Below are positions 3,691 through 61,075 of a DNA stretch of 64,000 bases, piece after piece (the stretch's first letter is position 1; every line of letters starts with the position of its first letter). Under the pieces are notes generated by a model that was not told the origin of the DNA, made no database searches, and saw only the letters and a program-made list of their open reading frames with translations. Both the position numbers and the translations under genes were made by a program. Where the stretch lies: positions 1 through 64,000 of the forward strand of contig NIVC01002722.1 in the NCBI GenBank assembly GCA_002269645.1. The letters run 5' to 3'. Source of the stretch: Macrostomum lignano. Taxonomy: Eukaryota.

Positions 3691-3696
3691 GACGCC
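3691..3696 (+). repeat. Left target-site duplication GACGCC of the Polinton-like element
   Basis: Identical hexamer at 14439-14444 directly abutting the other TIR. Confidence 0.92.
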
Positions 3697-4029
3697 ACTA
3701 CTACGGACTGGCAGATCCGTTGATTTTGCGAAGGTCCGTCGGGCTGATGTCGGCCTCTAGCACCGCGGCAAGGTGCTCCCTCGGGGTGTACCGCCTCCCC
3801 CGGGGTGTACCTCCAGCGGGGTGGGCGTCCAGCGAGTGTACCTCCAGCGGGGTGGGCCTCCCGCGAGTGTACATCCGGCCGGCTGGGCGTCCAGCGAGTG
3901 TACCTTCAGCGCATGGGCCTCCCTCGGGGTGTACATCCGGCGGGGGGGATTCCCGCCCCTCCCACCAATGTTGTGTGCACGCGGTTAGTGTAGGAAGGAA
4001 ACCCCCGATGCTGACGCAGCCCTGTACAG
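3697..4029 (+). repeat. Left terminal inverted repeat (~333 bp), begins ACTACTAC
   Basis: Reverse complement of 14107-14438; by eye three substitutions and one G-run indel. Confidence 0.93.
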
Positions 4030-4500
4030 TGAGCATGCAGCCCTGTAGCTGGGGACAGAGAGCAGCCCCTGTAGCAGGAGGGGTAGTGCGCGGAGAGCCG
4101 CCATCCCCCTGTAGCTGGGGACAGATAACAGGCGGCCCCCTGTATCAGGAGAGGGACAGAGAGTGCGTGGAGAGCCGCCATCCCTCTGTAGCAGGGGACA
4201 GATAACAGACGGCCCCCTGTAGCAGTATGAGGTGGGTGAGGGGTACAGAGAGACACGGGGTGCTGGGACAGAGAGTGCGTGGAGGCAGTAAGGGATAGAG
4301 GAAGCCGCCCTGCATGTCGCAGCACGCGGCGTGGACAAAGAGGGAGTGTGAGTCACACACCCCGCGGAGAGAGCAGCTCAGGCAGGAGGCGCGGGACAGA
4401 GAGGCAGTGAATCACACGGAGGGACAGCGAGCTCCCCCAGGCCGGGGTGGTAGAGGGACAGACCGGCGGTGAGTGATAGAGAGCCCCCAGGCTGCAGAGG
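4030..4500 (+). repeat. Left subterminal region with imperfect ~55-60 bp repeats and patchy inverted homology to 13690-13900
   Basis: Recurrent ggagagccgccatccc..ctgtag..ggggacagataaca units; caggcaggaggcgcgggacagagaggc..gtgaatcacac is mirrored near 13745-13785. Confidence 0.7.
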
Positions 4501-4581
4501 AATTGAAAAGAAAAAACACGTAATTCAGTTGTTTCAGGTTCAGGCCATCCGGCAAACAGAGCAAAGCTCTCCAACAGTGTT

Positions 4582-5211
4582 TTATTTAGCATAAACTACG
4601 GGGTAGCGCCCCAACACATTAGCATAGTAGCGAACAGATGCGTTCTGCAAGCAATTAACAATCAGGTAGGAGTAGGGCTCCCTAGTGGCGTCTTCGTACA
4701 TTTGAACAAAACTTTTTGGGTTAGCGGGGACAAGCTGCTTTGCAATATGGGCGACTGTACTAACGTCCCGTACATTGCGGAACAATACAAGGTAGTTTGC
4801 GTTAAGGGATTGAGTGCGGTGCTCCTTGCCCTTGGCAAACAGGTTTTGCACAAGGTACCAAAGCCGGAATCCCACATGGCTGACTTTGCGAGTGAAAAAT
4901 GCGGTAAAAGCAGCGTTTTTTTCCATGGCTTGCATTTGATCATCGACAACGAGTAGAATATTCGGAGCGGGAACATAGGTTTCAGGGTTAAATGTAGACG
5001 AGCGAAAATTGACAGGGTACGGTAATTCAAACAGTTCCGGGTCTGGATAGTGCCCAAACCAATCAACGCGAACAGGCTTAGGGTCCTGAAAAAACTCGTT
5101 TCGCAGCAATTCTTTAACAAGAGTTGTTTTTCCGCTCTGGTTAACACCAGCAAAAATCGCCGAAGTATTTGGAGCAAACTTTAGAGCGTCAGGATCAATT
5201 GTTTGGTACAT
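4582..5211 (-). CDS. A32/FtsK-HerA-like genome packaging ATPase
   Basis: Walker A GVNQSGKTT, Walker B LLVVDD, downstream YLVQNLF and SLNANYLVLF typical of Polinton ATPases. First ATG at 5211 (ORF track starts at TTG 5235). Confidence 0.93.
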   Translation of the reverse strand: MYQTIDPDALKFAPNTSAIFAGVNQSGKTTLVKELLRNEFFQDPKPVRVDWFGHYPDPELFELPYPVNFRSSTFNPETYVPAPNILLVVDDQMQAMEKNAAFTAFFTRKVSHVGFRLWYLVQNLFAKGKEHRTQSLNANYLVLFRNVRDVSTVAHIAKQLVPANPKSFVQMYEDATREPYSYLIVNCLQNASVRYYANVLGRYPVVYAK

Positions 5212-5245
5212 TTTCAGGGCGAGTTGACACTCCAAATATTAAAAA

Positions 5246-5683
5246 CTATTTTATTTGTAGAACATGTTTTCGAACCATCAAATCATTTTCAAGCAGATTG
5301 GTAGAGTAACATTCCCTTAAAATCTTTTCAATCGACAATCCCTCTAAAAAGTGCTTTTCGGCCACAAAAATCACGTGCAGCCCACACGCTACACTTAGAG
5401 GGTGTTGAACAGGGTGGCGATTCATAGCAGCAGGTGAATGTACATGCTTCGAGAACCAAGCCGAGAGCAATTCCGGCACGGGTTCAATACACAGGGGGTC
5501 AAAAAATGTCACACTCTTATCATCGTGTAGGCAAATCAGTCCCCAGTGGGTGCCTGGCAGATTACCCGTGTCAAAATTAATTACGTATGCAGCAGGGTAA
5601 ACAGGTGCAGGAATTCTGTCAAGAGGGCAAACGCGCACTTCCACAGGTAGTTTTAAACGTTCCAAAATTTCCAACGTGTTCAT
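5246..5683 (-). CDS. Adenain-like (Ulp1-fold) cysteine maturation protease
   Basis: His motif GTHWGL, FFDP (Asp), oxyanion Gln plus catalytic Cys in VQHPLSVACGLH; YVINFD motif. Confidence 0.92.
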   Translation of the reverse strand: MNTLEILERLKLPVEVRVCPLDRIPAPVYPAAYVINFDTGNLPGTHWGLICLHDDKSVTFFDPLCIEPVPELLSAWFSKHVHSPAAMNRHPVQHPLSVACGLHVIFVAEKHFLEGLSIEKILRECYSTNLLENDLMVRKHVLQIK

Positions 5684-6960
5684 ACGTAGTCCAGAATGGG
5701 CTGGCGGCCTCTAGTATTTTCACCGCGTTGTCAAAGTAACCAAACACCAAAACGTTAATCCCGGCAGGTAGGGCTGCAGAAAACTTTATCTGTAGGGTCA
5801 GATTCCCTCTCTCGCGAGGCATGCTATGTCCACCCAGTTCCATGTCGGGCATTAGATTCCACGCAAATAAGCAGTAACCGGCGCGATAATCCGAATATGA
5901 CAGGTCAATGTCCAAATCGCGATTCATTTTCCCTAGGCTCTTAAACAGCATGGCGTATTCGCGAGCATAGTTTTGGGCAGCGAACCTTGGAGTGAATGGT
6001 TGACCGCACAGACTGACACCGTCCTTGTACAGGGCCACACTGTCCGCCCCAAATGGCTCGAAATTGAACGGATTATGGGTGGCCACCCCGTTATATGCGG
6101 CACTATTGACCATTCCCATAATGACAAGTTTAGGCTTCTGCTCCGGGAAAATATTATTGATTGACACGTCGCGAACTCCTACAGCGACAGAGGTGTTGTG
6201 TACAACGAGGCGCTCGATGGGGTAGACTGCATTCTGAGTTGACAGCTGTTCTTCAATCTCCAAGGCCAGTTGGGGGTTAGCCTTTACCCGACGAACGTGT
6301 AATTTTGCACTTTGAAGAACCAACTTTGCATCAACCCCTTCGGCGTGATTCTCCACAACGAATCCCGAATTTTGCAGAGTGAGCGTAACCACCATATCAG
6401 TGTAGGGCAGCAGCATACGATCGTTGGTGACAAAAAAGTCGAGACTAAGAGGGCCATACAGATGAAATGTTCGAGAACCGGCAGCCATCGCCTTGCGAGT
6501 TACAAAGCCAGGATTTCCAACCGCAGCCATTTGACCCCCAGCGTCTTTAGCGTAGCCCATCATCCGCAGTTGGTTAGACTTTGAATCAGACCCATAACTC
6601 AGCATGTACGAATGTACGCCTTGTAGGCGTGGTTGTTGTTGCTAGACTCGATATGTGTACCATTTATGGAAAGAGACACGTTTTTGAACATGGTCTCCAA
6701 GAGGTAATTGATTGGCGCCACGTTTGAATCCGCCCCAAATCGGCTCCATTAGCTCTCTTAATACAACCTTTAATCTCGAGATCAATGTCATTAAGATCGA
6801 CAAACGTCTCGCCACCCACAATTCTAAACTCGACCACACTCGCATTTTCGACGCTGGCAACCGGATGGATTTCTTCAGTAGTTGAACCTACAGCAGCAAT
6901 CTGGTGAGCACGAGGGGCAAAGAGCTCAAACTCAGACTTTGTACACAGACACTCGGACAT
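5680..6960 (-). CDS. Major capsid protein (double jelly-roll, Polinton type), split by three 1-nt deletions
   Basis: N-terminus CLCTKSEFELF..Q..IHP..VEF, restored middle VAPINYLLETMFKNVSLSING..AYKAY..LSYGSDSK, restored end ..RGRQPILDYV* whose TGA overlaps the protease ATG. Frameshifts near 6735, 6603 and 5715. Confidence 0.88.
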
Positions 6961-6988
6961 GTTTAGTAGACAGAATCGATCGGCGAAT

Positions 6989-7333
6989 CTAATTGAAGCG
7001 GGGCTTTTTATTTATAGTGCTGAAAATGTCTGAATTGAGACGCTTCGGAGCCTTTTTTCTTCTTCGTCCGCTACCCCTTTGGGTAACCGTGTCTTTAAAG
7101 GCGTCCTTGGCAGCCTGAACAGAATTGCGCAGGACAGACTCTTTCAAATTGCCTCCTTGCTCGAGGCTATCGTTAACCGTAGTTGCTAGGGCTCTAGTAC
7201 CATGACGGAGAATGTTTTTACCAAAACTCTTTAGAATTGGCAGCGCGAAGCGGGCAATGCTTCCAAACAAACCGTTGCCCCTCTGGGCGCCTGCGAAAAC
7301 AGGCAAAGCTCCACCAATCAGAATAGAAGGCAT
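6989..7333 (-). CDS. Basic core/precursor protein (pVII/pVI-like) with protease-type cleavage motifs
   Basis: LIGG/A, QRGNG/L and QRGSG/R motifs, amphipathic LFGSIARFALPILKSFGK, K/R-rich C-terminus; sits between minor and major capsid genes. Confidence 0.7.
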   Translation of the reverse strand: MPSILIGGALPVFAGAQRGNGLFGSIARFALPILKSFGKNILRHGTRALATTVNDSLEQGGNLKESVLRNSVQAAKDAFKDTVTQRGSGRRRKKAPKRLNSDIFSTINKKPRFN

Positions 7334-7376
7334 GATTAAGCACTAGGATATAGTTTACTGAGGCTGTGTTGTTTAT

Positions 7377-8514
7377 TTATAGCTTCTTTTCGTGGATGTT
7401 AACGCTCAAGACGGTCTTGCCCTTCATTACTTTTGTCATATCCCTGCCCATATCATCGTTAATTTGTACTTCAATAGTTTTGAATGGGTGCTTAACCAGT
7501 GGTAGATATGCCGGATTGACAAACTCGTAGTACTCGCGACCGCCCTGAACTTTGGGATCCATCGGTATAGCTCCCAACAGAGGAACTTTAACGTCTCCTA
7601 CAATAACAGAATCGACTATGCTCGAATAGATGTACATTGTTTGTATTCCACCGGTTAATTCCATTGATGCGTTTGCGTAGAATTCCGATATACCGAAAAA
7701 TGGGGTTGTATAATCATGCTCTGGGAAACCAAGCACGCTGGTCAAGCGCCCCAGCCCAAACATGTAATCCGTCGAGCCAATGTAATAACACCTATTCGTA
7801 ACTTCGCTGTATCTGAAAAAGTCCGTTCTAGGTGCTGGAGCCGCTATGAATCTTTGATATGTTTCCAAATTATATCGTTGAGTTCCTCCACCAATCTTTT
7901 AGGTGTACTATAGTATCCTCCCTGCATAAAAAAGATTTGATCAGACGCTGCGCTAGTAACTTGTCTTATTATTGGAGCATGGTCCATTGACTGTACAGTC
8001 GGTTCCTCAACAACTGCGGTGATGGAGGCTGCACACCCCGCGTGTAATACGAGTTCAGTAGGTAGATCCTCATTAGACTCGAAGCCGGCGACCAGTTTAA
8101 ACACCTTGGGTAGGGTATCCGGGAATTTGATGCCGACGGTGGATTTTGAAGTATTCACAATCATAAAGGCGGTTGGGGATGTTCTTAAAAAGACAATTTT
8201 CTTATTATCCCCTTCAACGTATCGGATACCGTTTAGAAAGCCGGAAATACATTCTTCAGGGGTTTTCAGACCCGCTGCGAGACAAAGGTTTGCAAACGAC
8301 GAAGCCGTCAAGAGGCCCTCCTGTTCGCGAATGGTGATCGGTATAGATTTTTTGAAAGATTCAAATTCTTTGTAAAGTAGATCCGTTCGAGGCAAACCTC
8401 ATGATTCGGAAAGTGGAGAGTGTCCGGTAAATTAATAAAATAATGAGCCGGATTATTTTCGGGATAGTGCTCGGGGCACGCATTACTAGGCAGAAAGAGA
8501 TGCATGGTAGCCAT
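7377..8514 (-). CDS. Minor capsid protein (penton, single jelly-roll), split by two 1-nt deletions
   Basis: N-terminal LFLPSNA..YPENNPAHYFINLP..EVCL and C-terminal MYIYSSIV..VGDVKVPLL..YLPL..IEVQINDDMG..GKTVL typical of Polinton minor capsid; frameshifts near 8355 and 7868. Confidence 0.85.
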
Positions 8515-8517
8515 GCA

Positions 8518-9597
8518 TTAGTTATTATTACGTTGCCGTATATTTATAACTTCATTTACAGGTACAAATGAATTAAAAATGTCGGGATAACCGCGCCAGC
8601 TAACGTAATGGTGCGCAACACCATTTATTAACACGTTTCTACGCAAAACTTTATTGATTACAAAACGCTCGGGTCGGGTAGATTTGGACAGTTCATTGTA
8701 GTAAAACCGTCCCTCAATCACTTCACCAGACAAATCAGAAATACGATAAAAATGTGGGGGTCCAGGGCAAACTTTGGATATAATGTACACCTCCTCACTA
8801 TACATGTCGTACGCCTCCTTGTCGAATGCCCTGCGAGATTTCGAAATTCTCACAAAATCCCCCTTTTTATATACGGGTTCGTCTTTTTGTTGATGCGGGT
8901 AGAGCTTTTCCCACACACGCTTCTGATTGTGGAACCCTACACTTGACGGTTTCATCTCAATAGAAGAATGCGTCGTGTTGTTGTAATTACCTACCAAATT
9001 GGGTAAGTAGTCAACCCAACGCCACGTGTTGTTGTGCTCAAAGTAGCGAGCCAGACGCTTTCGAAGAGTTCTAATCAGCCTCTCGGCCATGTTTGCCTTG
9101 TACACAGAGTTGGTGCTGTACATTTTAACATTATTGTCTTTTAGTATGCGACGCATTCGCTGATTATAAAACTCGGTACCCCGATCCACGTGAAGGTAAA
9201 GGGGGCGGGCAGGGAAATCATTCGCCAACATCGACTCAAACGCTGCGGGGGTATCACTCTTTAGTTTAATTGCCCTACAAAAAGCCTGCTTACTAAGCAC
9301 ATCAATAACAACTAGTATATATTTATGTCCGTCATTCCAACGTTTGTATCGCGACATGTCCATCAAATCGGCTTGTAGAGTTTCCATGAATCCTCCCGAC
9401 ATTACTTTTCCCGTTTTAAATCTCCTGTTGACTCTCCGGTGACGGGTGTAACTCGGTTGGGTTTCTAGCCATTCCCTGGTTTGGCGTCTTGTCAGGTTTG
9501 GCGCCAGACGTTTGGCCTCCTGATAGACACGGGCAGCATTTGAAAAAGCGGCGGCTCCTTGTTCGTAAACTCGACGAAGAGCGGTTAGAGCCCTCAT
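8518..9597 (-). CDS. Retroviral-like DDE integrase with C-terminal chromodomain-like region
   Basis: QADLMD..YILVVIDVLSK, HVDRGTEF, MAERLIRTL (D,D,E) and C-terminal KVLRR..YVSWRGYPDIFNSFVP; intact 359-aa frame from ATG 9597. Confidence 0.95.
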   Translation of the reverse strand: MRALTALRRVYEQGAAAFSNAARVYQEAKRLAPNLTRRQTREWLETQPSYTRHRRVNRRFKTGKVMSGGFMETLQADLMDMSRYKRWNDGHKYILVVIDVLSKQAFCRAIKLKSDTPAAFESMLANDFPARPLYLHVDRGTEFYNQRMRRILKDNNVKMYSTNSVYKANMAERLIRTLRKRLARYFEHNNTWRWVDYLPNLVGNYNNTTHSSIEMKPSSVGFHNQKRVWEKLYPHQQKDEPVYKKGDFVRISKSRRAFDKEAYDMYSEEVYIISKVCPGPPHFYRISDLSGEVIEGRFYYNELSKSTRPERFVINKVLRRNVLINGVAHHYVSWRGYPDIFNSFVPVNEVINIRQRNNN

Positions 9598-9730
9598 TGA
9601 CAACAAGTGTGGATGCGCAGCATGAATAGTTGCACGTAATGTCGGCTGGGGAGTTGTCTACACAAAGCTTTGACGCGGCGGCTGCTGAGCCCATGACCGC
9701 CGGGCGCGCGGTTATGTTTGGACTAGGGTT

Positions 9731-10357
9731 CTATTTATAAAGAGTCACGTATTTTTTCTTTTTCTCGGGTGGTCTTAGTTGGTAATCGTGATATTTACCC
9801 ACCCCGGTACCTTGATCCACAAGTTTGGGCATAGCATTTACACCTTTGTTGCGCGTGGTCGTTAAATCGCGGGTGTCTGTCGCAATTGTGTGCTCATATT
9901 CATCGCGGTAATCGTCGGTACCAACCAAATGGTCAACCTTCTTTTCCTCCACAGGGAGCTGTTTCCGACCGAGCATAGACATTGGTATACGGGCCTTGTC
10001 TAGTAGAGCCCAGAAAGCGGTCGAATATTTCGGGTGATTATTAGTGTTGGTGGTGACGGCTTGTAGAAGATCAAAAACGTTGCTACCACCCCAAGTTTCA
10101 CCATCAAAAACGACTTCCCACGATTGGTTGTAATTTAGGCTAGGGTGCTTTTCTGTTAGTATATTCCATATACGTTGTTGCCTATCAGAAAATAGCTGCT
10201 TTGTCGTCTTTTGGGGTTTTACTTTAGCCAATTGGGTCTGTAGCTTTGCATTGTACTCTACAAGTTTTTCGTACTCCGATTTTGGGGCAATTTCTCGCGG
10301 AGTACCCTGCCTAAGCTGATTGAATTCCTCCTCGGGGACCACAACGTACTTGTCCAT
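9731..10357 (-). CDS. Conserved uncharacterised Polinton protein
   Basis: MDKYVVVP N-terminus and W..VFDGETWGGSNVFDLL motif resemble the ORF usually found just upstream of Polinton integrases (recalled pattern, not searched). Confidence 0.6.
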   Translation of the reverse strand: MDKYVVVPEEEFNQLRQGTPREIAPKSEYEKLVEYNAKLQTQLAKVKPQKTTKQLFSDRQQRIWNILTEKHPSLNYNQSWEVVFDGETWGGSNVFDLLQAVTTNTNNHPKYSTAFWALLDKARIPMSMLGRKQLPVEEKKVDHLVGTDDYRDEYEHTIATDTRDLTTTRNKGVNAMPKLVDQGTGVGKYHDYQLRPPEKKKKYVTLYK

Positions 10358-10359
10358 TT

Positions 10360-10749
10360 TCAACGTCGTTGTCCTAGCAGACCACCAAACAGTCCAGTGA
10401 TTAACGGTGCAGCAATCTTGGCGAGAATTGGTAGGAATCCTCCAACTTGAGGGTCCGATAGTATCATATTCTTCTTCCTATTTATAGACAGTTTTTTGTC
10501 GGCCATGTCATGCAGGGCTTCTCTATAACGTTTCAACCTTGCAAACTGTCTAGGGGATAGATCGATATTGCCCTTGAGTACATTGTGACTTAACTCGCAC
10601 AGACACTGCATCAACTCATTGTCGGCTCCCCTAATAATGGCCCTCCTTCGATGTGGTCGCGCGTCACCGAGCTCCTCTAGCTCGCGACGGCAAGAACAAA
10701 GACGAGAAATTCCGTTTGTCATTATTAAGGTGGTAAGCATTGCGTGCAT
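10360..10749 (-). CDS. Small virion precursor protein (pX/pVI-like) ending in an amphipathic peptide
   Basis: ELMQCLCELSHNVLKGNIDL..QFARLKRYR core, QVGG/F cleavage-like site followed by FLPILAKIAAPLITGLFGGLL. Confidence 0.72.
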   Translation of the reverse strand: MHAMLTTLIMTNGISRLCSCRRELEELGDARPHRRRAIIRGADNELMQCLCELSHNVLKGNIDLSPRQFARLKRYREALHDMADKKLSINRKKNMILSDPQVGGFLPILAKIAAPLITGLFGGLLGQRR

Positions 10750-10787
10750 ACATGTGCATATTTTGTTTATTTATAAGCAAAGCATAA

Positions 10788-11270
10788 TTAGAGTTGCAGA
10801 ATAGCAGTCACGTGGTCGTACATTTTACACAGTTCGTCATAGTTTCGTATTCCTAGGAACACTAACCGACCATTCTTTCCGCACAGCAGGCACTTGGCCT
10901 TGCGGAATGGGGACTTTATTACAAGCCCATTGAATACCTCACTCTCCCACTCAACCCAGCGCGAGCTCGAGTTGGCAAGGCGAAAAAAGTTTGGCCTAAC
11001 ATTAACTTCTGCACGATAAGTACCGGTAGTGATAACAACAGAGTTTGGTTTACATTGAGAAAAAAGACGCAGAACATCGTTGGTTGATTGGCAACCAAAA
11101 ACAATGGCAGATAATGAACGTTTGAAAAAGTTTATTGTACACTTTCCGATCCTCAGGTTGTACAATGCCCGGGGTCTATGAAACGTTCTAGCGCGCGCCC
11201 AGTCCAAGTTCGGTAGGCTGTTCCACCTTGCGCAAAACACCCTGTTTACGCACACGACGTTCTGCAAGCG
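10788..11270 (-). CDS. Divergent TATA-binding-protein-like domain (no own ATG)
   Basis: Two TBP-like repeats: LQNVVC (cf. LQNIVS), IVFGCQSTNDV (cf. VCTGAKSEEQS), WESEVFNGLVIK (cf. YEPELFPGLIYR), NGRLVFLGIRNYDELCKMYDHVTAIL (cf. [26 protein letters not shown]). Confidence 0.7.
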   Translation of the reverse strand, partial: RLQNVVCVNRVFCARWNSLPNLDWARARTFHRPRALYNLRIGKCTINFFKRSLSAIVFGCQSTNDVLRLFSQCKPNSVVITTGTYRAEVNVRPNFFRLANSSSRWVEWESEVFNGLVIKSPFRKAKCLLCGKNGRLVFLGIRNYDELCKMYDHVTAILQL

Positions 11271-11868
11271 GTTTTTTCGGTTGCTTTTGTTTCCGCTCAG
11301 CTCCACCAGCTCCGCGCTTGCGTCCTACCTTGATTTTTAACGGTGGAATCCAGTAGCAGCGGTCAAACGCCTGCTTGGGAGCTTCTATGAATTGCAGTTG
11401 TTGAATTTTCGGCACCGCGGTTAGAACCGAGTCGTGAATCACCGCCGTGTCTAGGGCGAACAGTACTCTATAGTAGCCCGTCTTGTTCTTGTAGTCGGTG
11501 CACAACTTGCCGCTCTTGTCGTACATTTTAAAGTCTTGAGCCAATCCGAATGCAGCGCTGTCGCAGTCAAAAGTGGGGTTGTACCCCAATAGCGCCATTC
11601 CTTGGATAGAGAGCTGGTGACACACGGAATTGAACGCTTCTGGTATGCAGCTCTCCAAGTGCTTTTGGGAAAGAATGATGAATTCGCGGCGTTCATTGTC
11701 GGTTCTCACACCCTTGACAATCAGTACGGGCGTCGCATTGGCAAGATAGAGAGGGCCCTGTTCGTCGTACTCAATGTCGTACGTCTCGGTTCCGTTGTAG
11801 CTTGGACCTCTCGACTTGAGAGAGAATAGGTCGATCCTAACACTATTGTAGTCTTGAACGGTATCCAT
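11188..11868 (-). CDS. Hypothetical protein, beta-rich, possibly OB-fold ssDNA-binding; K/R-rich tail overlaps the TBP-like frame
   Basis: Intact 226-aa ORF with ATG and upstream TATATAAG; FKMYDKSGK..YYRVLFAL..VPKIQQLQFIE loosely resembles T7 gp2.5-type SSBs (weak). Confidence 0.5.
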   Translation of the reverse strand: MDTVQDYNSVRIDLFSLKSRGPSYNGTETYDIEYDEQGPLYLANATPVLIVKGVRTDNERREFIILSQKHLESCIPEAFNSVCHQLSIQGMALLGYNPTFDCDSAAFGLAQDFKMYDKSGKLCTDYKNKTGYYRVLFALDTAVIHDSVLTAVPKIQQLQFIEAPKQAFDRCYWIPPLKIKVGRKRGAGGAERKQKQPKKPLAERRVRKQGVLRKVEQPTELGLGAR

Positions 11869-11960
11869 GTTGCTGCTGCTGTTGCTGAGAGTGGGTCTCG
11901 CACCCTGAGTGCCTCCTTATATACCCTTGGGGCGGAGGGTAGGGTGGCTGGGCGTTTTTG

Positions 11961-12476
11961 TTATAGTCCTTCTTTAACGACATTTTCCGGTGTTGGAAAT
12001 CCGGAAAAAATAAACCTTTTGTTTCGATCTTCTGGTCGAGGGGTTTGAGGCGTGTCGTTAATGCAGCTGCAGTGAGGGTTGATAGTCAACTTCGCTAGCA
12101 CTGGTCTACTGTGTTTAGGCCGCCATATCCTTTGGTGTTCCGTCCACGAGGGAGCAAGCGGCTGGTGATTCCGGTACCGTATTTTTTCACGATGATCCTC
12201 TTGTAATATCGGGGTAATTATCTGCTCTATTCTTTGTAGATTGGCTTTGAAATGCATCTTATCTCTAAAGTTGTAGTCAATTCGGGCATCTGTATATTCT
12301 TGGGTGCTGTAAGGCCCCTGCCCAATTTCGTCTACCTCTACATTAAAGGTGACTAATCGCTCGGGAATTGGTTTGCCGTGACAAATGCATAACCAGTCTG
12401 TGGACTTTTTCAGGGTCTCGTACTCTGCCCTTTCTTTGCTCGATAAAAGCGGGTAGTCTCGGGAAATCCAGCTCAT
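11961..12476 (-). CDS. Hypothetical protein (CICH and HCSC Cys/His clusters)
   Basis: 171-aa ORF tiled in the element, ATG overlaps upstream stop (ATGA). No recognisable family. Confidence 0.55.
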   Translation of the reverse strand: MSWISRDYPLLSSKERAEYETLKKSTDWLCICHGKPIPERLVTFNVEVDEIGQGPYSTQEYTDARIDYNFRDKMHFKANLQRIEQIITPILQEDHREKIRYRNHQPLAPSWTEHQRIWRPKHSRPVLAKLTINPHCSCINDTPQTPRPEDRNKRFIFSGFPTPENVVKEGL

Positions 12477-12826
12477 TCCTCCGACTCGTCAGATTCGTCG
12501 AGAAAGAAATAGTGGAAGAAATTGTCGACTCTATTCTTTTCAACTGCACAAAGTATTTTGTCTGACAGGTGAAATTCGCAGTCTCCTTTTACGTACAGGC
12601 GCTTCCCGTCGATAACTTTGATAGATGCGCCGCCTCCGAGATCGTAATCTGTGCAGCTAGTGCCCAGAAATTTCATTCGATGCCATTGTGCTCGACTAAA
12701 CACGGCTCCTGGGCAGCTACAGTTTTGGCAGTGGATGCGGAAACGCGGCTTGTTTGGGTCCCAATACCCCACTTCCAGCACTGCGTTGTCAACGTGGGTG
12801 TACACTATTTCAGATTGCCAGTACAT
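12473..12826 (-). CDS. Possible PC4/Sub1-like nucleic-acid-binding protein with acidic tail
   Basis: PGAVFSRAQWHRMK resembles PC4 KGISLNPEQWSQLK; a second YDLGGG beta-repeat; DESDESEE C-terminus. First ATG at 12826, 32 nt after TATAAATA. Confidence 0.45.
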   Translation of the reverse strand: MYWQSEIVYTHVDNAVLEVGYWDPNKPRFRIHCQNCSCPGAVFSRAQWHRMKFLGTSCTDYDLGGGASIKVIDGKRLYVKGDCEFHLSDKILCAVEKNRVDNFFHYFFLDESDESEE

Positions 12827-12860
12827 TTCGATATCGTTGAGAAATACCAATTTTATTTAT

Positions 12861-13634
12861 TTATAGGTCCCCGTCTGAACAGATTTCCAACCATTCCCTC
12901 CACTGTAGAACGGTTCTCTCAATTGATAAAAGTAAATACGCCGCTAGGAGCCCCGGGTTGCCGCTGCGCGCTTCGTAAAGACAGTTGAGATATGTGTCTC
13001 TATTTGCAAATGCTGCTGGTTCTGGGAGAATCCGGTTGAACAACTTTGATAATAACAGCCTAGCAGTTCTACCATTGCCGTCGCTAAAGGGGTGTATGGT
13101 GAGAAACTTTTCTAGGAAATATGCTCCTGTCACTACTGCGTCTTGCAGGAATTGTGGTTCTTTTATGTCTCTAGTTAATTTTACCAGCTGCCGTTCGATA
13201 TTTTCTGGGGTGCTGTAATACATACTCGCGCCTGCAGGTTTAGCGTGTTTAATTCTATACGATCCCGCATTTGGGAGCAGTCCTCTGCACACGCGTGTGT
13301 GAACTTGCCTAACCAACTCTGTGTCAATTATACCCCTCGTGTCATTGAGGTGTTTTGCTGCACTCCATAAATTAGTTGTGACCATACAGGACCCGGTTTT
13401 TAGCGCTTCTTCTGCTTCCTCCAAAGTCAACGCCACCTCTCTCTCCTCAATGTTTACTTCTGTTATGAATGCCAGCCTGGCTAGATACGTGAATTCTAAG
13501 CGCTCCTTTGTGGACAATCCCGCGATTCTTTTCCTAGTGTCTGATAACAATCTTTCAATGAGGGGTATTCTGGCGCACACGCTCTCGTTGCTGAAATAGG
13601 GGTTATCAGTTATGCCCGCCTCCATGTTCTCCAT
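12861..13634 (-). CDS. Fic-domain protein (AMP transferase)
   Basis: Canonical HPFSDGNGRTAR motif, upstream GSYR flap region and an N-terminal EVNIEE helix resembling the inhibitory (S/T)xxxE(G/N) motif. Confidence 0.92.
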   Translation of the reverse strand: MENMEAGITDNPYFSNESVCARIPLIERLLSDTRKRIAGLSTKERLEFTYLARLAFITEVNIEEREVALTLEEAEEALKTGSCMVTTNLWSAAKHLNDTRGIIDTELVRQVHTRVCRGLLPNAGSYRIKHAKPAGASMYYSTPENIERQLVKLTRDIKEPQFLQDAVVTGAYFLEKFLTIHPFSDGNGRTARLLLSKLFNRILPEPAAFANRDTYLNCLYEARSGNPGLLAAYLLLSIERTVLQWREWLEICSDGDL

Positions 13635-14106
13635 ACAGAGGGTTTTGTACACTGCTTCTATTTATGGGTTTGAAATTACACGTTGCCCGTCCGTCCCTCT
13701 CCCCCGGGCCTGGGGAAGCTCACTGTACGGCTCTCTCCTGGGGGTGTGATTCACCGCCTCTCTGTCCCGCGCCTCCTGCCTGGGCTGCTCTCTGTCCCTC
13801 CGCACCCACTGCCTCTCTGTCCCCTGCAACTGGGGCGGGGCTCTCTATCCTCTGTACGGCTCTCCCCGTGGGAGTGTGTGAGTCACACTGCCTCTCTGTT
13901 CCTGCATGCGCCTCTCTATCCGGCTCCTGCAGCGGGGCGTTCTGTTCACATCTCTCTTTCCGCCAACCCTCTGGCTGTACACGCTCACCGTACAGGGCTG
14001 CGTCAGCATCGGGGTTAAAACTTCTCACTCCCTATGCTTCGACAGTATAACAGCAGCCTAGTGACTGGCTCTCTGTCCACCCACCCCTCTGTCCGTACAT
14101 GCCTCG

Positions 14107-14438
14107 CTGTACAGGGCTGCGTCAGCATCGGGGGTTTCCTTCCTACACTAACCGCGTGCACACAACATTGGTGGGAGGGGCGGGAATCCCCCCGCCGGAT
14201 GTACACCCCGAGGGAGGCCCATGCGCTGAAGGTACACTCGCTGGACGCCCAGCCGGCTGGATGTACACTCGCGGGAGGCCCACCCCGCTGGAGGTACACT
14301 CGCTGGACGCCCACCCCGCTGGAGGTACACCCCGGGGGAGGCGGTACATCCCGAGGGAGCACCTTGCCGCGGTGCTAGAGGCCGACATCAGCCCGACGGA
14401 CCTTCGCAAAATCAACGGATCTGCCAGTCCTTAGTAGT
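14107..14438 (-). repeat. Right terminal inverted repeat (~332 bp), ends TAGTAGT
   Basis: Reverse complement of 3697-4029. Confidence 0.93.
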
Positions 14439-14444
14439 GACGCC
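14439..14444 (+). repeat. Right target-site duplication GACGCC
   Basis: Identical to 3691-3696. Confidence 0.92.
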
Positions 14445-17149: not shown

Positions 17150-20045
17150 TGAAGAGGACAAGGAATAAAGAGGGAGGGAGAGCCGCTGGCTAAGCACGCG
17201 CTCGGAAAAGTTGGGGCGTATAACTAGCTAGCCTAAGGCGGGTTTTGGGCCGCTCGGGCCGCCTCGTTGATGCCAGCTAACCTGTTAGCTTGCCTCCTTT
17301 TTAGGCTGTCCCAGAGAAGGTTCAGCACTGGAGGGCGGTTGCGGGCAGCTCTAGGGAGCTCCGGCTCAATATGGAAATCATGGTGCCTAGCCGCCTTCAC
17401 CTTGGAGAGCCAGCCTACGCCCAGGGCCTGAATCCTATCGGCCAACATGGGCATGGCCCGCCAGCTCATGCAGATAAGCCGCTTGGGTATAACTCATGGC
17501 GGATCCTAGGAGCTCGATTTTGTATTTTTTGGAGCTTGTTGAGGTTGCTTGGCGCAATGATATTTAGAACGGTTTGTCGTGAAAGGTGATCGCCTGACTC
17601 TTGTCAGCATTGATCTTGATCCCCTGCCCCCCACACCAGTTCCAGACTTCGTTGAGGTAGGGTTGCAGGAGCGTATTAAGGCCGGCAAAAGAGTCCGCCG
17701 AGGCCCAGATGGCCATGTCGTAGGCGAATTGGCTACGCTTGACATTTGAATGTTGAGGCCGTGGCATAGTGCTGATAAAAAGCAGGTACAGGAAGGGGCT
17801 TAAAATGCCACCCTGGGGAATGTCCGGCTGCAACTCGTACGGCTGGCTGAGCGCTCCATTTACCTTTACCTGCATTAACCTGTCTGCTAGATAGTCAGAG
17901 CAGATCCTGATGAGGGCGTCCTCGTGAATCGACCTCGTCTCGACCTCGTGAATCCTGTAACGCAGGTAATCGTACCAGACCGAGTCGAACGCGGCTTGGA
18001 CATCAAGGAAAATGGCTAAAAGTCTTTTGAGTTTGGCTTTGCCCACCTGGACGTCTTGGACGAGGCGGACAAGATTGTCATAGGTGGAGTGAACCTTCCT
18101 ATATGCGCACTGATCCGCACCGAGGATACTTTTGCCCTCGAGATGTTTCATCAGCCTCCTCATCAATAGCTTCTCGAAGACCTTGCTGAGGCAGGAGGTA
18201 AGGCTGATGGGCCGGTAGGATCCCGGGGATTCAGGCGGTTTATCTGGCTTGGGAATCATTGTCACCACATGGTCTGGAGGCCACGCGACGATGATCAGCT
18301 TCTCCATGAGGCAGTTCTGAAACTCCTCCCAGTTGGCTTTAGCAAAGTTCCGGGCTTGGATTGACCTGGTTGGATAAGCACAGTAGGGCGTCATGTCGAG
18401 TCACCACAGAGCCAATCATGAAGTTGCTGACCAACCCTGTTGTTGTTGTTGCGAATTTCACCCCAAGGAAGTTATGCCTGGCGTTGAGGTCTCCCATGAT
18501 AAGAGAATATTTGGCCAAAGAAAACCGAGTTAAAATTCCAACATCAAGGTTGTCCGGCGACGGAGACCGATATACCAGAGCAAGTTAGAAGGCAGGGCAA
18601 GTGCCGTCAAGAGGGGTGACCGTGCAGGTAAGAACCTCGTGATTGATGTTGTCGTACTGTTGGACATCAGCTACCTTAACCCGCTGGGGTGTGTACGAGG
18701 AGGAGTCCACACTTTGCACTAGGAAAGTCAAACCGCACTGCAGCATAGCCCGGGAATGAGCAGATTTGGGTATTTTTCAGGATGGTCTCAGAAAACAATG
18801 CAATATCCAACTTTTGACCTGAGACCCAGAGCCTGAGTTCTTTTAGTTTCGGTATTCCGCCTGCAGTTTAGGTGGGCGATCCTAAGGCCTAAGGCAGTGG
18901 AGTTGGAGCTATCTTACTCGCTATCACCGAAGGTACTAATTACTTATTATTCTAGGTCTGGCCACCCGCCTCACGCCGATTGGCGCCGAGCAGCTGACCA
19001 AGGCCTTGGTGACCTTCCGACCCGCCTTCGAGTACGGGCCAGAACCCTACTTACTACGTCCTGTACCGTTTGACGGGTACCCTCGGTAGCAGGCGGCCGT
19101 TCGACTGGGCTAAGCCAGAGGGTTGTAAGCGCCTCGACGAGTGCTTGAAATAGGAGGGGGAGAAGCCCACTCACCAGCCCTTGGAGGTCAACATTAGCGT
19201 TAGCGCTTTGCGGCGTGGAATTGTTTGGCGGAGCAGCCGATTGAGTTGGCGCTTGCGTCTGAGTCTCAGTCGAGTCGCGCGCAGGGCGCTTCCGGCTCGG
19301 GAGGCTTGGGCCGATGAGCCAGGACGAGTCGTCGTCGCCGTCTGTTGCCGTCGTCGCCGTCTGTTGCCGTCGTCGCCCGCGCTGCGGTCTCGCCTGAACC
19401 AGACGCCGTTGCCGCTGCTGGCTTCGGTGCGGGGGCGGATGGCGCCGCTGTTGCCGCTGCTGTCGGAGTCACTGCTGTTGCCACCATAGGTGGTGGAGGT
19501 GGAGCGGATAATGAGCCGCGGACGAGGCTCGGGTCTGGTTCTCGGGAGACGTCGGGTTACTGGTCCTCCGCCGAATTGAGGCTCCTGCAGGGGCCCACGC
19601 AGGAAGAGCTGGTGGTCCTGCGGAGTGGCTGGGAAGGCCAGATACCCGGTCTCGTATTGCGTTTTTTTGGTGAGTGTGGCCCGCGCCGACCCTTGAAAGT
19701 TGGCGGCGAGCCATTGGAGAAAATCTATTTGACTGCTTTTGTTGGCAGTTTTGAAGAAAATTGGCACCACGTTAGTTCTGTTGCCGCTATTGCTATTGTA
19801 TGGCCGTGAGCCCGCACCGATATTTCGGCCGCCGTGCTGGACTTGGGGGCCGTCTGGGGCCGCAAGGCTGGGCGCGCCGGCCGCCCCGCAGCCGCCTGGC
19901 TGTCCGGTCGCTGCAGTCGTCCGAGAGCCCGGCGCAGCCGGGCCAGAGCCCGCCCTGCTACTGCCAGGCCAATTACCGACGTGTGCTGCTGCTGATCGTG
20001 TTGGGCCTCCGCGCCCAGGAGTGCCCAGGAGAGAAGACTCGAAGA
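17150..20045 (-). mobile_element. Degenerate, internally deleted Jockey/I-like LINE (ORF1 remnant, AP endonuclease remnant, RT)
   Basis: RT ORF 17564-18394: IPKPDK..SYRPISLTSCLSKVFEK, IFLDVQAAFDSVW, PQGGILSP, FAYD; endonuclease remnant IMGDLNARH near 18480; ORF1-like frame 19171-19770. Confidence 0.85.
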
Positions 20046-25000: not shown

Positions 25001-27831
25001 ATGGTTGCAAAGGTCTGTAATAGCCAATTTTGATATCTATTTGATACAATCAATTTGAATGAAAGTGCTAATGAAGTCATCAATTTAGCCCATAAGTGGA
25101 TTCAGGATTTATATATTCATAACTTTTACTATTGCAAAGTTAATTATGCAACTCAATTATATATTTGCTTTGCTTTTCTTGTGCCATATTAGGCTTTAAC
25201 CATTGACAGAAACAAAGTGAAATTGCTTCATAAAAATCAATAAGGTGCAGCCATTCACAATAAAAATTACATAGGTCCTTTTCTATATCAAGGTGATATA
25301 GATGTGCTCCAGATGCAAGTCAATGATTCTACAGCATTTCTACCATGACTCAGATAAAACTAGATAAAACTAGAAAGATTTAATACTTTCTAGACACTTC
25401 AAGGTTTAGTATAACTCTTTTACAAGAATATATCCTGTAAAAGAGATTGGCATACTCAAAAGTCACTCAAAAACCATTTATGAATTATGATCAATAGTAC
25501 TGTATGAGCATAGTTGAGACAGCAGGGTCCATAGTTTACCATAGAATGAGTAAGTTACATGAAATTAATTAGCTATGCTTACATATTCGGATATGGAAAA
25601 TTTTCGGTTACAGTGAACATACGTGCGAAACAGTCGGCCGACCGATTTGGCGGCAAACCAAGGAAGTCGCAAAAATGCCCACCCGAAAAAATAACGTAGT
25701 AGTACTAAGTAGCTGACGAGGCATTTTGGCTTAATAAGACAGTTAAAGTTGCTCCAGCCGTTTACCCAAATTTGCTTTAGGGTTTTTTTACATCTAAGTC
25801 GCATTTTTGGCCAAAAACTACGTCGCATTTTTTTTAAAACTAAGTCGCATGAATGACATTGAAGATCGATGCAAAGAAAAGTTTGTTTATTGCATTAAAA
25901 ATTTGTAGAATGGCGGCTACCCTGTTTGTTCAACCGTTGGATCTGGTGAAGAATCGAATGCAGCTCAGTGGTATGGGCGGCTCGCAGCGCCTCTATAACA
26001 GCTCTTTTCACGCTCTGACATCTATACTTCGAGCCGAGGGTATCACCGGGTGTACTCCGGTCTGTCAGCTGGCCTGATGCGTCAGGCCACCTACACCACA
26101 ACTAGACTTGGCGTCTATACTGCTCTATTCGATGCAGTTAGTGCTAGGAATGATAATAAGCCACCATCCTTTGTTGTCAAGGCAACTATTGGGTTAACAG
26201 CCGGAGCAATTGGAGCTTTTGTTGGCACCCCGGCTGAGGTGGCTCTGATCCGCATGACTGCCGATGGCAGACTGCCAGCTGATCAGAGACGCGGCTACAG
26301 CAGCGTGTTTAACGCTTTGGCTAGGATTGTACGCGAAGAAGGCTTAGTGACCCTCTGGCGCGGCTGCGTGCCCACAGTTGCCAGGGCAATGGTGGTTAAT
26401 GCTGCCCAGCTGGCCACCTATTCTCAGGCTAAGCAAACTATCATTAGCTCGGGTATTATTAGTGTGAGTTGCCTCTAGCCTGCTGTAGATTTGCGATGCT
26501 GGTTGTGACTTCCATTGTGACTTCCCCATTGTGACCCTCCCACTGTGACTTCCATTGTGACTCTCTCAGTGTGACTCTCCCATTGTGACCCTCCCACTTT
26601 GATTCTCCCACTGTGACTCTCCCACAGTGGTTCTTCCATTGTGACTCTTTCACTGTGACCCCCCCCACTGTGACTACTCACATTGTGACCCTCCCACTGT
26701 GACTTCCATTGTGACTCTTTCACTGTGACTCCCCCACTGTGACTACTCACATTGTGACCCTCCCACTGTGACTTCCATTGTGACTCTCTCATTGTGACCC
26801 CCCCACTGTGACTACTCACATTGTGACCCTCCCACTGTGACTTCCATTGTGACTCTCTCATTGTGACTCACATTGTGACTCTCCCACTGTGACTTCCCCA
26901 TTGTGATTCCTCCATTGTGACTTCCCTTCTGTGACTGTCTCATTGTGACTCCTATTGTGACTCTTCAGTCTTCCATTGTGACTCTCTCACTGTAAACCTC
27001 GCTCTGTGTTTCTCCCATTGTGACTATCATTGTGACTCTCACATTGTGACTCCCACATTGAGACTGTGACTGTCCCATTGTGACTCTTCCATTGTGACTC
27101 TCTCACTGTGGCTCCTATTGTGACTTTCATTGTGACTCTCCCACTGTGACTCTCATATTGTAACTTATCCATTGTGACTCTCACTGTGACCCTCGCTCTG
27201 TGACTCTCCCACTGTGACTCTCCCATTGTAACACCCAGAATCCCATTGTGACTCTCACTTCTATCTTAGTCATTAGTATGGTATATAGTAATATATTACT
27301 ATACTATACAGTATGCGAACTCAAACCGCCCACTAAAACCCACGACAGGACGGCCTTCTGTGCCATTTCGGTGCCAGCATGATCAGCGGCCTGGTCACCA
27401 CAGCGGCTTCAATGCCAGTTGACATCGTGAAGACTCGCATTCAAAATATGAAAATGATTGACGGAAAGCCGGAGTTCAATGGTATCACGGTGAGTGCTCA
27501 CCAAGTGGCAGCTGCCATTCTGACGTTTAAAACTTTAAAATTCTTGGCATACTCTTTTACACTACTAAACTTATCAGTAGCGTGATTTAGTTTAAACGGA
27601 TTTTTTTAAATGTTATTCTAATTGAATCGTTAATTTTATCCTCTCTTACAGGACGTTCTAGCGAAGGTGATCAGGCAGGAAGGCGTGCTGAGCCTGTGGA
27701 AAGGTTTCACTCCCTATTATTTTCGATTGGGCCCGCACACTGTGCTCACCTTCATCTTCTTGGAGCAGATGAATCGATTATATCGTGTCTACGTGCTGAA
27801 AGACAGCTCTACTGGATCCTCGTCTCTGTAG
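22099..27831 (+). CDS. SLC25A11: Mitochondrial 2-oxoglutarate/malate carrier; exons 22099-22166, 25909-26463, 27349-27489, 27652-27831
   Basis: IKFLFGGSAG, QPLDLVKNRMQLSG, GTPAEVALIRMTADGRLP, SMPVDIVKTRIQNM, LWKGFTPYYFRLGPHTVLTFIFLEQ; all GT-AG and in phase; one 1-nt deletion in a G-run near 26050. Confidence 0.93.
24220..24745 (+). repeat. 14-bp tandem array built on GCTAGC palindromes
   Basis: Units gctagcaaactttg / gctagcagatttcg / gctagcacattttg cycling; in intron 1 of the carrier gene. Confidence 0.9.
26505..27260 (+). repeat. Degenerate (c/at)TGTGAC minisatellite
   Basis: Dozens of tgtgac cores spaced by short C/T-rich linkers; intron 2 of the carrier gene. Confidence 0.85.
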
Positions 27832-38400: not shown

Positions 38401-38519
38401 GGCCTCGATGCCGCAGCGCTGGCTGATGGCGTGTCAGCATGACCTGTGTGAGGGCAGTTCCTAGTTCTGCTAGTGCCGCTGCCGCTGTTGTTGCTGTTGC
38501 TCTCCGCGCTCCACATCAT
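29448..38519 (-). CDS. SLC17 / vesicular glutamate transporter-like MFS protein; exons 38519-37442, 34927-34763, 30784-30677, 29743-29448
   Basis: KRYLIALL..IGMR, GYLV..VGGYL, RLMQGLAEG, FWGPEGERS, VPWKEIFKSRQVYAI, GGCLADFL, GFSGLAVAGYAVNVIDLAPNFSG; phase-1 junctions consistent. Upstream exon cannot be excluded. Confidence 0.85.
29875..30170 (+). repeat. ~20-bp minisatellite (tttgtgtctttggacaatgg)
   Basis: Visible degenerate tandem units in the last intron of the SLC17-like gene. Confidence 0.85.
30985..31800 (+). repeat. ~20-21-bp minisatellite (caacttcaagaca core)
   Basis: About 40 degenerate units. Confidence 0.88.
34007..34572. mobile_element. MITE with ~110-bp terminal inverted repeats
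   Basis: aggacgctacactcgaaatctatgg..cttttcgccgaaaaatacactacagagataggaggtttt mirrored at 34455-34560; related fragments near 39570 and 54490. Confidence 0.75.
35435..35726 (-). mobile_element. tRNA-derived SINE copy
   Basis: Reverse complement of the 44078 copy including A/B boxes and tail. Confidence 0.85.

Positions 38520-54844: not shown

Positions 54845-61075
<6,231 letters not shown>

Follow-up and report, generated by a model that had tools for sequence, protein, structure and literature searches.

How Maverick/Polinton elements turn on their capsid genes bears on whether and how particles form. The window considered here, 64,000 nucleotides of Macrostomum lignano contig NIVC01002722.1 (GCA_002269645.1), carries an element of this type in which a short box recurs at gene junctions. 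The borders of the element are as follows.

3697..14438, minus strand: Maverick/Polinton-type element, family A; 10,742 bp, termini ACTACT...AGTAGT, every gene on the minus strand, without PolB
3691..3696, plus strand: left target-site duplication GACGCC, 6 bp
14439..14444, plus strand: right target-site duplication GACGCC, 6 bp
3697..4417, no strand: left terminal inverted repeat region; outer 266 nt 97%, patchy further inward
13720..14438, no strand: right terminal inverted repeat region

Beyond the long inverted repeats and the 6-bp duplication flanking both ends, the element encodes an rve integrase (Pfam E=2e-9) and a packaging ATPase and maturation protease recognised from the matching genes of PolB-bearing elements (30-42% and 30-38% identity, respectively; Pfam gives a weak AAA match only). 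The major-capsid-like gene, a candidate for a jelly-roll capsid protein, is 27-32% identical to its counterpart in PolB-bearing elements and had no match in a Pfam search. Perfect 6-bp duplications also flank both family-B copies in which both ends were found, and the duplication is mismatched in the sole other such family-A copy. No long open reading frame for a protein-primed family B DNA polymerase was found in the element, and tblastn with three resident PolBs gave no match in it or in 32 stretches of family A and B copies. Because PolB is absent by both searches, family A is best described as a PolB-less Maverick relative and not as a canonical self-synthesising Maverick. Its genes and boxes are listed from the right end.

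13659..13666, minus: variant box CATAAATA; first base 32 nt upstream of the Fic ATG
12861..13634, minus: Fic-domain gene, 257 aa (Pfam Fic E=2.6e-14)
12858..12865, minus: TATAAATA box; contains the Fic stop (TAA), upstream of ORF117
12473..12826, minus: ORF117
11961..12476, minus: ORF171; without its own box, its start overlapping the ORF117 stop as ATGA
11916..11923, minus: TATATAAG box; follows a CCACCC/CTCCGCCC tract, upstream of ORF226
11329..11868, minus: conserved part of ORF226, 180 aa; predicted exon 1
11262..11328, minus: predicted intron, 67 nt, GTAGG...TTGCAG, phase 0
10788..11324, minus: ATG-less TBP-like reading frame; predicted exon 2 begins at 11261
10768..10775, minus: TATAAATA box; intergenic, extends to AATAAA, upstream of ORF129
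10360..10749, minus: ORF129, small conserved protein; 77% identity in family B
10479..10486, minus: TATAAATA box; within ORF129, codons S-I-N-R
9731..10357, minus: ORF208; 53% identity in family B, 23-30% to the matching family-C gene
9732..9739, minus: TATAAATA box; overlaps the ORF208 stop (TAG)
9416..9694, minus: ORF92, Cys-rich, Met-Gly start; 62% identity in family B, overlaps the integrase start in another frame
8518..9597, minus: rve integrase, 359 aa
8541..8548, minus: TATAAATA box; within the integrase 3' end (V-I-N-I), upstream of the minor-capsid-like gene
7377..8514, minus: minor-capsid-like gene; named after its place in the gene order and the initial annotation, frame interrupted in the assembled copy
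7374..7381, minus: TATAAATA box; contains the minor-capsid stop (TAA), upstream of the core-protein-like ORF
6989..7333, minus: core-protein-like ORF, 114 aa; 87% identity in family B
7009..7016, minus: TATAAATA box; within the core ORF (T-I-N-K), upstream of the major-capsid-like gene
5680..6960, minus: major-capsid-like gene; frame interrupted in the assembled copy
5246..5683, minus: protease-like ORF; without its own box in all five elements compared
5252..5259, minus: variant box TACAAATA; within the 3' end of the protease ORF, unchanged in family B, upstream of the ATPase
4582..5211, minus: packaging-type ATPase; Walker A GVNQSGKT, AATAAA overlaps the stop

The seven exact minus-strand copies of TATAAATA and the three variants reported in the initial annotation all lie where it placed them, and its box-to-ATG distances of 49, 41, 27 and 32 nt (boxes 7009, 7374, 8541 and 12858) are right as coordinate differences. 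The box at 11916, however, belongs to a separate class. Support for the PC4-like label given to ORF117 is weak, with 8 of 28 identities to the family-C PC4 (E=0.008) and no Pfam or PDB match. The octamer TATAAATA is the most frequent 8-mer of the 9.1-kb element interior, on whose plus strand no exact copy occurs; Markov models of orders 0-3 predict 0.17-0.29 copies (P 8e-10 to 3e-8; 1e-4 to 4e-3 after Bonferroni correction across all 8-mers and both strands), while an order-4 model, which absorbs the motif, leaves it non-significant after correction (0.73). In 300 first-order simulations it never exceeded two copies, and 53 kb of host flank hold five on both strands. All seven fall in the zone 25-135 nt upstream of start codons, which makes up 15% of the interior, and six of them in the 25-65 nt zone (6%). 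The box at 10479 serves ORF208, whose ATG 129 nt on is the next beyond +19; that at 9732 precedes the conserved 92-aa ORF (9694) and not the integrase directly.

Comparison with the sister family B (72% coding DNA identity) indicates that the boxes are constrained. All nine boxes compared are identical (72 of 72 letters), against an identity of 39% (197/508) at four-fold, 66% at three-fold and 62% at two-fold sites; the 14 synonymous positions within coding-anchored boxes are by themselves sufficient for P of about 1e-4. At the end of ORF208 the box is retained in family B despite a changed reading frame over it. The CATAAATA box before Fic is identical in nine other family-A copies shown and differs by one letter in a tenth; the Fic gene itself is a 3' remnant in the family-B copies read.

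Out-of-frame ATGs provide a hint as to where transcripts begin. They occupy 11 of 545 positions at +8 to +28 from the box and 4 of 945 from +29 to the start codon (Fisher P=0.004; shuffling expects 14.1; 39 sites, five elements), a boundary that is not sharp, as placing it anywhere from +20 to +40 gives similar P values. For families A and B alone the contrast has P=0.03 (shuffle P=0.06). The pattern agrees with transcription starting downstream of the box and not inside it; no initiator signal stood out. The compact per-gene promoter system proposed at the outset finds support in position, conservation in family B and ATG loss beyond about +29, its promoter function being deduced from sequence.

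The canonical TATA consensus is TATAWAWR, with transcripts beginning some 25-31 nt past such a box. TATAAATA matches it perfectly and, therefore, host TBP could read the family-A box. Neither this match nor the missing start codon of the TBP-like frame had been remarked upon in the initial annotation.

The element-encoded TBP-like frame is the other candidate reader. Its Pfam match to TBP (E=1e-4) falls just below the curated cut-off, and all 15 of its PDB sequence matches are TBPs. The predicted structure (pLDDT 84.6) aligns with TBPs at TM 0.65-0.75, and Foldseek matches through rank 44, among those listed, are TBP-containing entries; because the alignment behind the model included cellular TBPs this fold result is partly circular, and the sequence-only matches agree with it. 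The model thus displays the two-repeat saddle of the family. Identity to the host TBP is about 20%, the long helix of the first repeat is short, and only two of the four DNA-intercalating phenylalanines (yeast numbering) align in families A and B, the alignment being unsure at the first. The acidic TFIIB-binding stirrup is better preserved, with both glutamates kept in families A, B, C and E and D/E in family D. The family-A protein is accordingly a degenerate TBP.

In families A and B this frame lacks an ATG, and it is likely exon 2 of ORF226. A GTAGG donor and an AG acceptor are present in 42 of 44 loci, with predicted introns of 66-67 nt in A and 196-206 nt in B. In four outside homologues, similarity ends exactly at IK|V; the next residue is R or C in these and G in A/B, all encoded by codons with G at donor +5. 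The acceptor CAG also encodes the Q of the TBP LQN motif, so conservation of the acceptor is ambiguous. The RNA joint between ORF226 and the TBP frame was not seen in any run, and a search for relatives of the ORF226 domain identified none.

Other Maverick lineages of the same genome strengthen the case for an element-encoded reader beyond what the window alone offers, because they combine TBPs of their own with boxes of their own. At eight homologous junctions, TATAAATA occupies six in family A and six in family B, YTTAAGAA five and six in two family-C elements, and TATAAGY five in family D, with the boxes of C and D having been found post hoc; cross-use of another lineage's box is 0/8 in every off-diagonal cell across the five elements. 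Family C encodes a clear TBP (Pfam E=1e-23) and its box departs from the canonical TATA; ten family-C stretches carry five to nine coding-strand copies of YTTAAGAA and their gene block lacks TATAAATA, and one family-C fragment (L137) has no box. The family-D frame has no Pfam match and was assigned by alignment to the TBPs of other lineages. Family E (L135) has a TBP, but its boxes are loose TATAARA only. An AT-rich lineage has neither a detectable TBP (best E about 5) nor an over-represented box. Since the members of one family do not count as independent, the support for this pairing comes from three lineages and one negative. Boxes of the canonical form TATAWAAG are found upstream of ORF226 in A and B, of the PC4 gene in C and of two genes in D. 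The suggestion that the element's own protein reads the box thus gains from the existence of that protein and from the sister pairs, with host TBP also a possible reader.

Since related families differ in box and carry their own TBP-like genes, the boxes are likely promoters, probably read by each element's own factor. On balance we favour a reading in which TATAAATA serves most virion and integration genes as their individual late promoter and is probably read by the element's TBP-like protein. Host TBP and Pol II would start at the TATATAAG box, which we infer to be an early promoter of host type that drives ORF226 together with the TBP exon. Splicing out the 67-nt intron would join the two into a protein of about 337 aa; this factor would bind TATAAATA and, through its retained acidic stirrup, bring in host TFIIB and Pol II for initiation some 25-35 nt further on. 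Box-less genes (ORF171, the protease, probably the integrase) would be translated from the upstream gene's mRNA. Boxes fall in the previous gene's last codons or stop because gene gaps are only tens of bases, and where AATAAA arises at a box the upstream mRNA may also end there. More tentatively, each lineage's captured TBP may have co-evolved with its own box (TATAAATA, YTTAAGAA, TATAAGY), giving a two-stage programme with private codes and insulated promoter systems in one genome; in A and B, where the factor could be made only by splicing the TBP exon onto an early protein, a single intron might be the early-to-late switch.

The promoter reading has to be weighed against host TBP/TFIID using the boxes as ordinary TATA boxes, the element's protein being dispensable there or otherwise used (for example as a decoy for TFIIB, NC2 or Mot1) and box differences reflecting earlier hosts. 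The consensus fit of TATAAATA, and a family-A protein without half of its DNA-wedging phenylalanines and without a start codon, speak for it. Yet all seven promoter-placed late boxes use the same one of the eight canonical variants, which makes up 5 of the 28 canonical matches found in the host flank; no box drifted between A and B, the family-C box is non-canonical, and lineages sharing one host genome do not share boxes. We regard this explanation as unlikely, though less so than the other rivals. The TAAAT and TAAG cores are reminiscent of late initiators in poxviruses and baculoviruses, and the boxes could serve the machinery of a large helper DNA virus, one helper per lineage. Families A and B have no polymerase and so need help in trans, and promoter sharing with a helper is documented for virophages and PgVV-14T (10.1101/2022.07.28.501842). 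Tolerance of out-of-frame ATGs to about +28 and depletion beyond, however, sits poorly with initiation inside the box, and nuclear Pol II is indicated by TBP-like genes in the elements themselves, by their host-type TATAWAAG boxes and by an intron predicted to be spliceosomal; a helper is improbable.

The octamer had also been credited with a triple use as TATA box, stop codon and poly(A) signal. A promoter role is likely, but the triple use was overstated. Three boxes do overlap an upstream stop (12858, 9732 and 7374), and with such short intergenic gaps this overlap, at three of seven sites, is a by-product of compaction. Four do extend to AATAAA (7009, 7374, 10768 and 12858; P=0.018), and of the 11 AATAAA on the coding strand of family A, 7 are no more than 25 nt from a stop; together with the spliced-leader trans-splicing reported for the host species (PMC8629364), this could make the motif mainly an RNA signal, for 3'-end formation or for trans-splicing of a polycistronic transcript. 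Against this, three boxes lie within coding sequence, up to 119 nt upstream of the stop; the extension is absent in family B at two of the four sites and from all C and D boxes; AATAAA in family C is concentrated mainly behind the genes at the two ends of the block; and a pyrimidine tract with YAG precedes the ATG at 4 of 39 sites against 4.8 expected. An RNA signal is therefore slightly more improbable still than a helper, and poly(A) reuse at some junctions, not intrinsic to the box, is plausible. Chance or a coding by-product (Ile-Asn codons, stop codons, an A-rich genome) is scarcely credible. Some 8-mer did reach at least seven copies in 5 of 300 simulations, and several boxes read I-N or contain TAA, but two are fully non-coding, one persists where the reading frame changes, all seven precede starts and other lineages swap the box at the same junctions; the conservation tests make this reading very unlikely.

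The proposed late-promoter system would work like that of beta- and gamma-herpesviruses, whose TBP mimics (KSHV ORF24, EBV BcRF1, HCMV UL87) act on TATT late promoters (PMC6541308, PMC12529657). Set beside those reports, the element shares a virus-encoded TBP-fold protein, a minimal box upstream of structural genes, early genes with a canonical TATA, polar residues substituted on the face predicted to bind DNA and an extra domain joined to the TBP fold (here predicted). The comparison is an analogy of working only: herpesviruses are an unrelated virus class, and their system was shown by experiment, whereas ours is deduced from sequence. ORF24 is described as keeping all four phenylalanines while the TFIIB-binding glutamates are missing, a pattern opposite to that of family A, and as needing a six-protein pre-initiation complex, of which no counterpart was identified in the element. 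Direct binding of Pol II also marks the herpesviral system. Moreover, several box/TBP pairs coexist in this genome, and the non-canonical box on structural genes typical of herpesviruses occurs only in family C, A and B being canonical.

With Mavericks/Polintons and adintoviruses (Starrett et al. 2021, PMC8502044) the element shares inverted repeats, 6-bp duplication, integrase, ATPase, protease and capsid-like module, but families A and B lack PolB. A figure legend of that paper lists 'TBP' for MELD viruses of non-animal datasets; its main text does not contain the word 'promoter' and links TBP to no DNA motif. Our literature search found no promoter description for animal Mavericks/Polintons. 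Virophages and polinton-like elements likewise repeat one short AT-rich motif upstream of many genes, differing between clades (PgVV-14T, 10.1101/2022.07.28.501842; Halocafeteria elements, 10.64898/2026.07.28.741278). Those motifs are reported to be shared with giant viruses and to match the helper's polymerase; here the candidate reader is element-encoded and the spacing fits a TATA box. The cellular TBP/TATA system resembles ours in saddle fold, E-x-E-x-F stirrup and box consensus, and differs from it in protein sequence, in the single invariant box variant and in the A/B reader's missing start codon.

A defined box with a candidate element-encoded reader makes the proposal directly testable. 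If true, the lineage-specific pairs would be natural altered-specificity TBPs that inform how TBP reads DNA and may be useful as small orthogonal promoter/factor pairs, and these elements would have arrived independently at the TBP-mimic strategy of herpesviruses.

The element that carries the boxes, and its surroundings in the window, comprise the following features.

3697-14438: family-A element, 10,742 bp, bounded by inverted repeats and a 6-bp duplication (GACGCC)
Minus strand, first half of the element: Fic, ORF117, ORF171, ORF226, TBP-like frame, ORF129, ORF208, ORF92
Minus strand, second half: rve integrase, minor-capsid-like, core-like, major-capsid-like, protease-like, ATPase
10788-11324, minus strand: TBP-like frame (Pfam TBP E=1e-4, just below the cut-off)
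25853-27585, 37410-38519, 50116-51430, 58863-61075: host gene exons, assigned by eye (mitochondrial carrier, SLC17-like transporter, RhoGEF/SH3-like, ankyrin-repeat fragments)
1846-2785, 17564-18394: LINE-type reverse transcriptase remnants

Every gene of the element is on the minus strand. No polymerase gene was found in it, which makes family A a PolB-less relative of Mavericks, and its diverged sister, family B, is likewise without one; both families are nevertheless multi-copy. With 40 of 94 candidates scored, at least 24 near-full genomic matches to a 4.3-kb query (95-100%) were obtained, the window included. The termini read ACTACT...AGTAGT in family A and ACTACGT...ACGTAGT in family B. 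At 3690/14439, a contig of one sequencing run joins both flanks with the target site present once, so the contig shows either an unoccupied site or a different copy of the repeat that the element had entered. Between 5680 and 8514 the capsid-like frames are interrupted in the assembled copy and run contigs differ from the assembly, so that the interruptions may be private to this copy or assembly errors.

All seven exact TATAAATA boxes and three variants described in the initial annotation were confirmed, as was the enrichment of the exact sequence. TATAAATA is the top 8-mer of the element interior (7 versus 0.17-0.29 expected), and the excess holds under Markov orders 0-3 after correction for all 8-mers. 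Order 4 leaves it non-significant after correction because that model absorbs the motif. In simulations the TATAAATA count was always 2 or lower, though in 5 of the 300 one 8-mer or another occurred at least seven times. Further, all seven boxes sit 25-135 nt upstream of a start, a zone covering 15% of the interior. A chance origin, for which the five simulations speak, has next to no probability in our judgement.

Conservation at homologous junctions, named in the initial annotation as one of the tests that could overturn the proposal, was found in family B. Across nine genes the two families share 72% of nucleotides and 75% of amino acids, with just 39% identity at four-fold sites; all nine compared boxes are kept in 72 of 72 letters, TATATAAG and TACAAATA among them. 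For coding-anchored boxes, the 14 synonymous positions alone give P of about 1e-4. The box at the ORF208 end is kept though the overlying frame differs, and the constraint therefore acts at the DNA or RNA level and not on the protein. In sixteen more family-B stretches the motif was counted 5-8 times on the coding strand, compared with 0-2 times on the opposite strand. The TATAAATA box pattern is a genuine feature. Fic and ORF117 are missing from family B, except that the 3' end of Fic and its TATAAATA box remain (L013, 4600-5020); behind them come a partly duplicated ORF171 end and another TATATAAG. In the window, ORF92 (9416-9694; conserved, Cys-rich, Met-Gly start) covers the integrase start in a different frame; since the ATG nearest downstream of the box belongs to ORF92, leaky scanning may supply the integrase in small amounts.

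PolB-bearing elements of the same genome with the same gene module as family A carry other boxes. Family C encodes a clear TBP (Pfam E=1e-23; over a hundred matches), and its gene block contains no TATAAATA; in ten stretches the coding strand has 5-9 copies of YTTAAGAA (e.g., CTTAAGAA). The TBP-like frame of family D is more remote, alignable but without a Pfam match, and the box is TATAAGY. At eight homologous junctions, the lineage's own box occurs at 6/8 in A, 6/8 in B, 5/8 and 6/8 in C and 5/8 in D, and any foreign box at 0/8 throughout; the protease lacks a box in every element compared. In family E, which also encodes a TBP, the boxes are no more than loose TATAARA matches, and one family-C fragment has no box. 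An AT-rich lineage without a detectable TBP has no such box; there (L082, L083; G000:C506) TAAA-rich runs abut many ATGs with no box 30-60 nt upstream, possibly reflecting a different transcription mode. Three lineages plus one negative underlie the pairing of TBP and box; the boxes of C and D were identified post hoc. In a quick-search tree of 109 TBPs, C and E cluster (SH-aLRT 92) and A/B and D form very long branches. Family D also has thymidylate/deoxynucleoside kinase and dUTPase genes beside PolB (L126, 1970-8122; called on the near-identical copy L093/L094).

A canonical TATAWAAG stands upstream of ORF226 in A and B, of the PC4 gene in C and of two genes in D. Upstream of it, a CCACCC...CTCCGCC tract, which we take to be Sp/KLF-like, occurs in family A (window 11924-11950) and two family-C elements (L075 4750-4796; L132 1000-1047), and is absent in B, D and another C element. 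A proline is reported to favour T at the first TATA position (PMC12529657). The corresponding residue is Ser in C and Asn in A/B, with proline retained in D; the first box letter is C or T in C and T in D, and A/B include one CATAAATA. Thr occupies two positions in the first strand of the second repeat in A, B, C, D and E.

The host genome has one TBP. For the joint change of five to six sites per lineage, the simplest explanation is a reader travelling with the element. Earlier hosts could also have produced lineage-specific changes, and reading of the boxes by host TBP alone is unlikely, though it carries appreciable weight. Different helper viruses could have had the same effect, and in the material available on virophages and PLVs shared motifs are linked to helper viruses; use of the boxes by a helper-virus polymerase is nonetheless improbable.

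The candidate for a travelling reader is the TBP-like frame. All 15 PDB sequence matches are TBPs, and the model (pLDDT 84.6; TM 0.65-0.75 to TBPs) gives partly circular support because the alignment included cellular TBPs. The acidic stirrup is kept, with only two of four wedge phenylalanines. The frame lacks an ATG. At 42 of 44 loci, the other two being decayed fragments, ORF226 codon 180 is followed by a GTAGG donor and the TBP frame has an in-phase AG acceptor. Donor and acceptor lie 66-67 nt apart in family A and 196-206 nt apart in family B. The acceptor CAG doubles as the codon of a conserved TBP glutamine, which makes its conservation ambiguous. In four outside ORF226 homologues (54-58% identical), the alignment ends at the same IK|V, the next residue has a codon with G at the donor's +5, and an out-of-frame trace of the TBP exon follows later. 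They are known as proteins only, as the viral and metagenome contigs searched contained no related locus. These features suggest that a spliced ORF226-TBP product of ~337 aa is probably made. A ribosomal frameshift may instead join the frames; however, spacer phase varies among family-B copies (3n+1 in 7/20, 3n+2 in 13/20, single-base differences being possibly assembly errors), and a slippery site common to them was not seen. A search for a longer, fused TBP protein came up empty, which is weak evidence, and two longer ORF226 matches proved to be chimeric gene models. ORF226 itself had no match in Pfam, PDB or Atlas, and a guess by eye of an SSB/OB-fold was not supported (model pLDDT 38.7).

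Twenty sequencing runs contain the stretch, none recorded as RNA. Contigs of eight of the 24 runs listed include none with a joint at 11262-11328, the predicted intron, and five of the eight have contigs spanning it unspliced; coverage in one batch of these runs is flat and DNA-like. Such contigs are uninformative here, as rare forms are dropped and starts and ends are not visible. Contig ends inside boxes (7377, 7378, 5259) were discarded as evidence (~1 expected by chance, rough count).

Promoter geometry was assessed on 39 boxes, taken from five elements. Between +8 and +28, 11 of 545 positions hold an out-of-frame ATG; between +29 and the start, 4 of 945 do (P=0.004; shuffling gives an expectation of 14.1). 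In A and B only, the depletion is weaker (P=0.03; shuffle 0.06), and its boundary is not sharp. The pattern is as predicted for a putative start site ~25-35 nt downstream of the box and argues against initiation within it. An initiator search gave no peak.

The initial annotation also had the motif serving as stop codon and poly(A) signal. The stop overlap is real at three of seven sites, but is expected, since a distance of 30-60 nt from box to following ATG is required and the gaps are equally short; family D has one such overlap with a different box. Extension to AATAAA slightly exceeds chance expectation (P=0.018), yet family B retains only two of the four. Seven of 11 AATAAA in family A lie within 25 nt of stops, and in family C they mostly follow the gene that opens the block and the one that closes it. 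Poly(A) use at some junctions is plausible and is not a property of the motif itself. Trans-splice acceptors are not enriched (4/39 boxes versus 4.8 expected). That the boxes are an RNA-processing signal is very improbable.

Herpesviral TBP mimics with TATT boxes are the nearest working analogue in the sections available (PMC6541308, PMC12529657), yet the family-A residue pattern and box both differ, making the likeness analogy, not membership. A figure legend names TBP-like genes in non-animal MELD viruses (PMC8502044, in part). No account of Maverick promoters or a TBP/box pairing was found in the literature searched, outside of which lie subscription papers and supplements that may bear on novelty; on term look-up, PMC11296320, PMC11161782, PMC12220804, PMC11131425, PMC10748475 and 10.1101/697771 showed no TBP-promoter link.

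On balance, the following scheme appears likely for family A. An early host-type promoter would yield the ORF226 transcript, and its splicing would produce the TBP fusion. The fusion would read TATAAATA as late promoters, bringing host TFIIB and Pol II to the virion and integration genes, and genes without a box would be expressed from upstream mRNAs.
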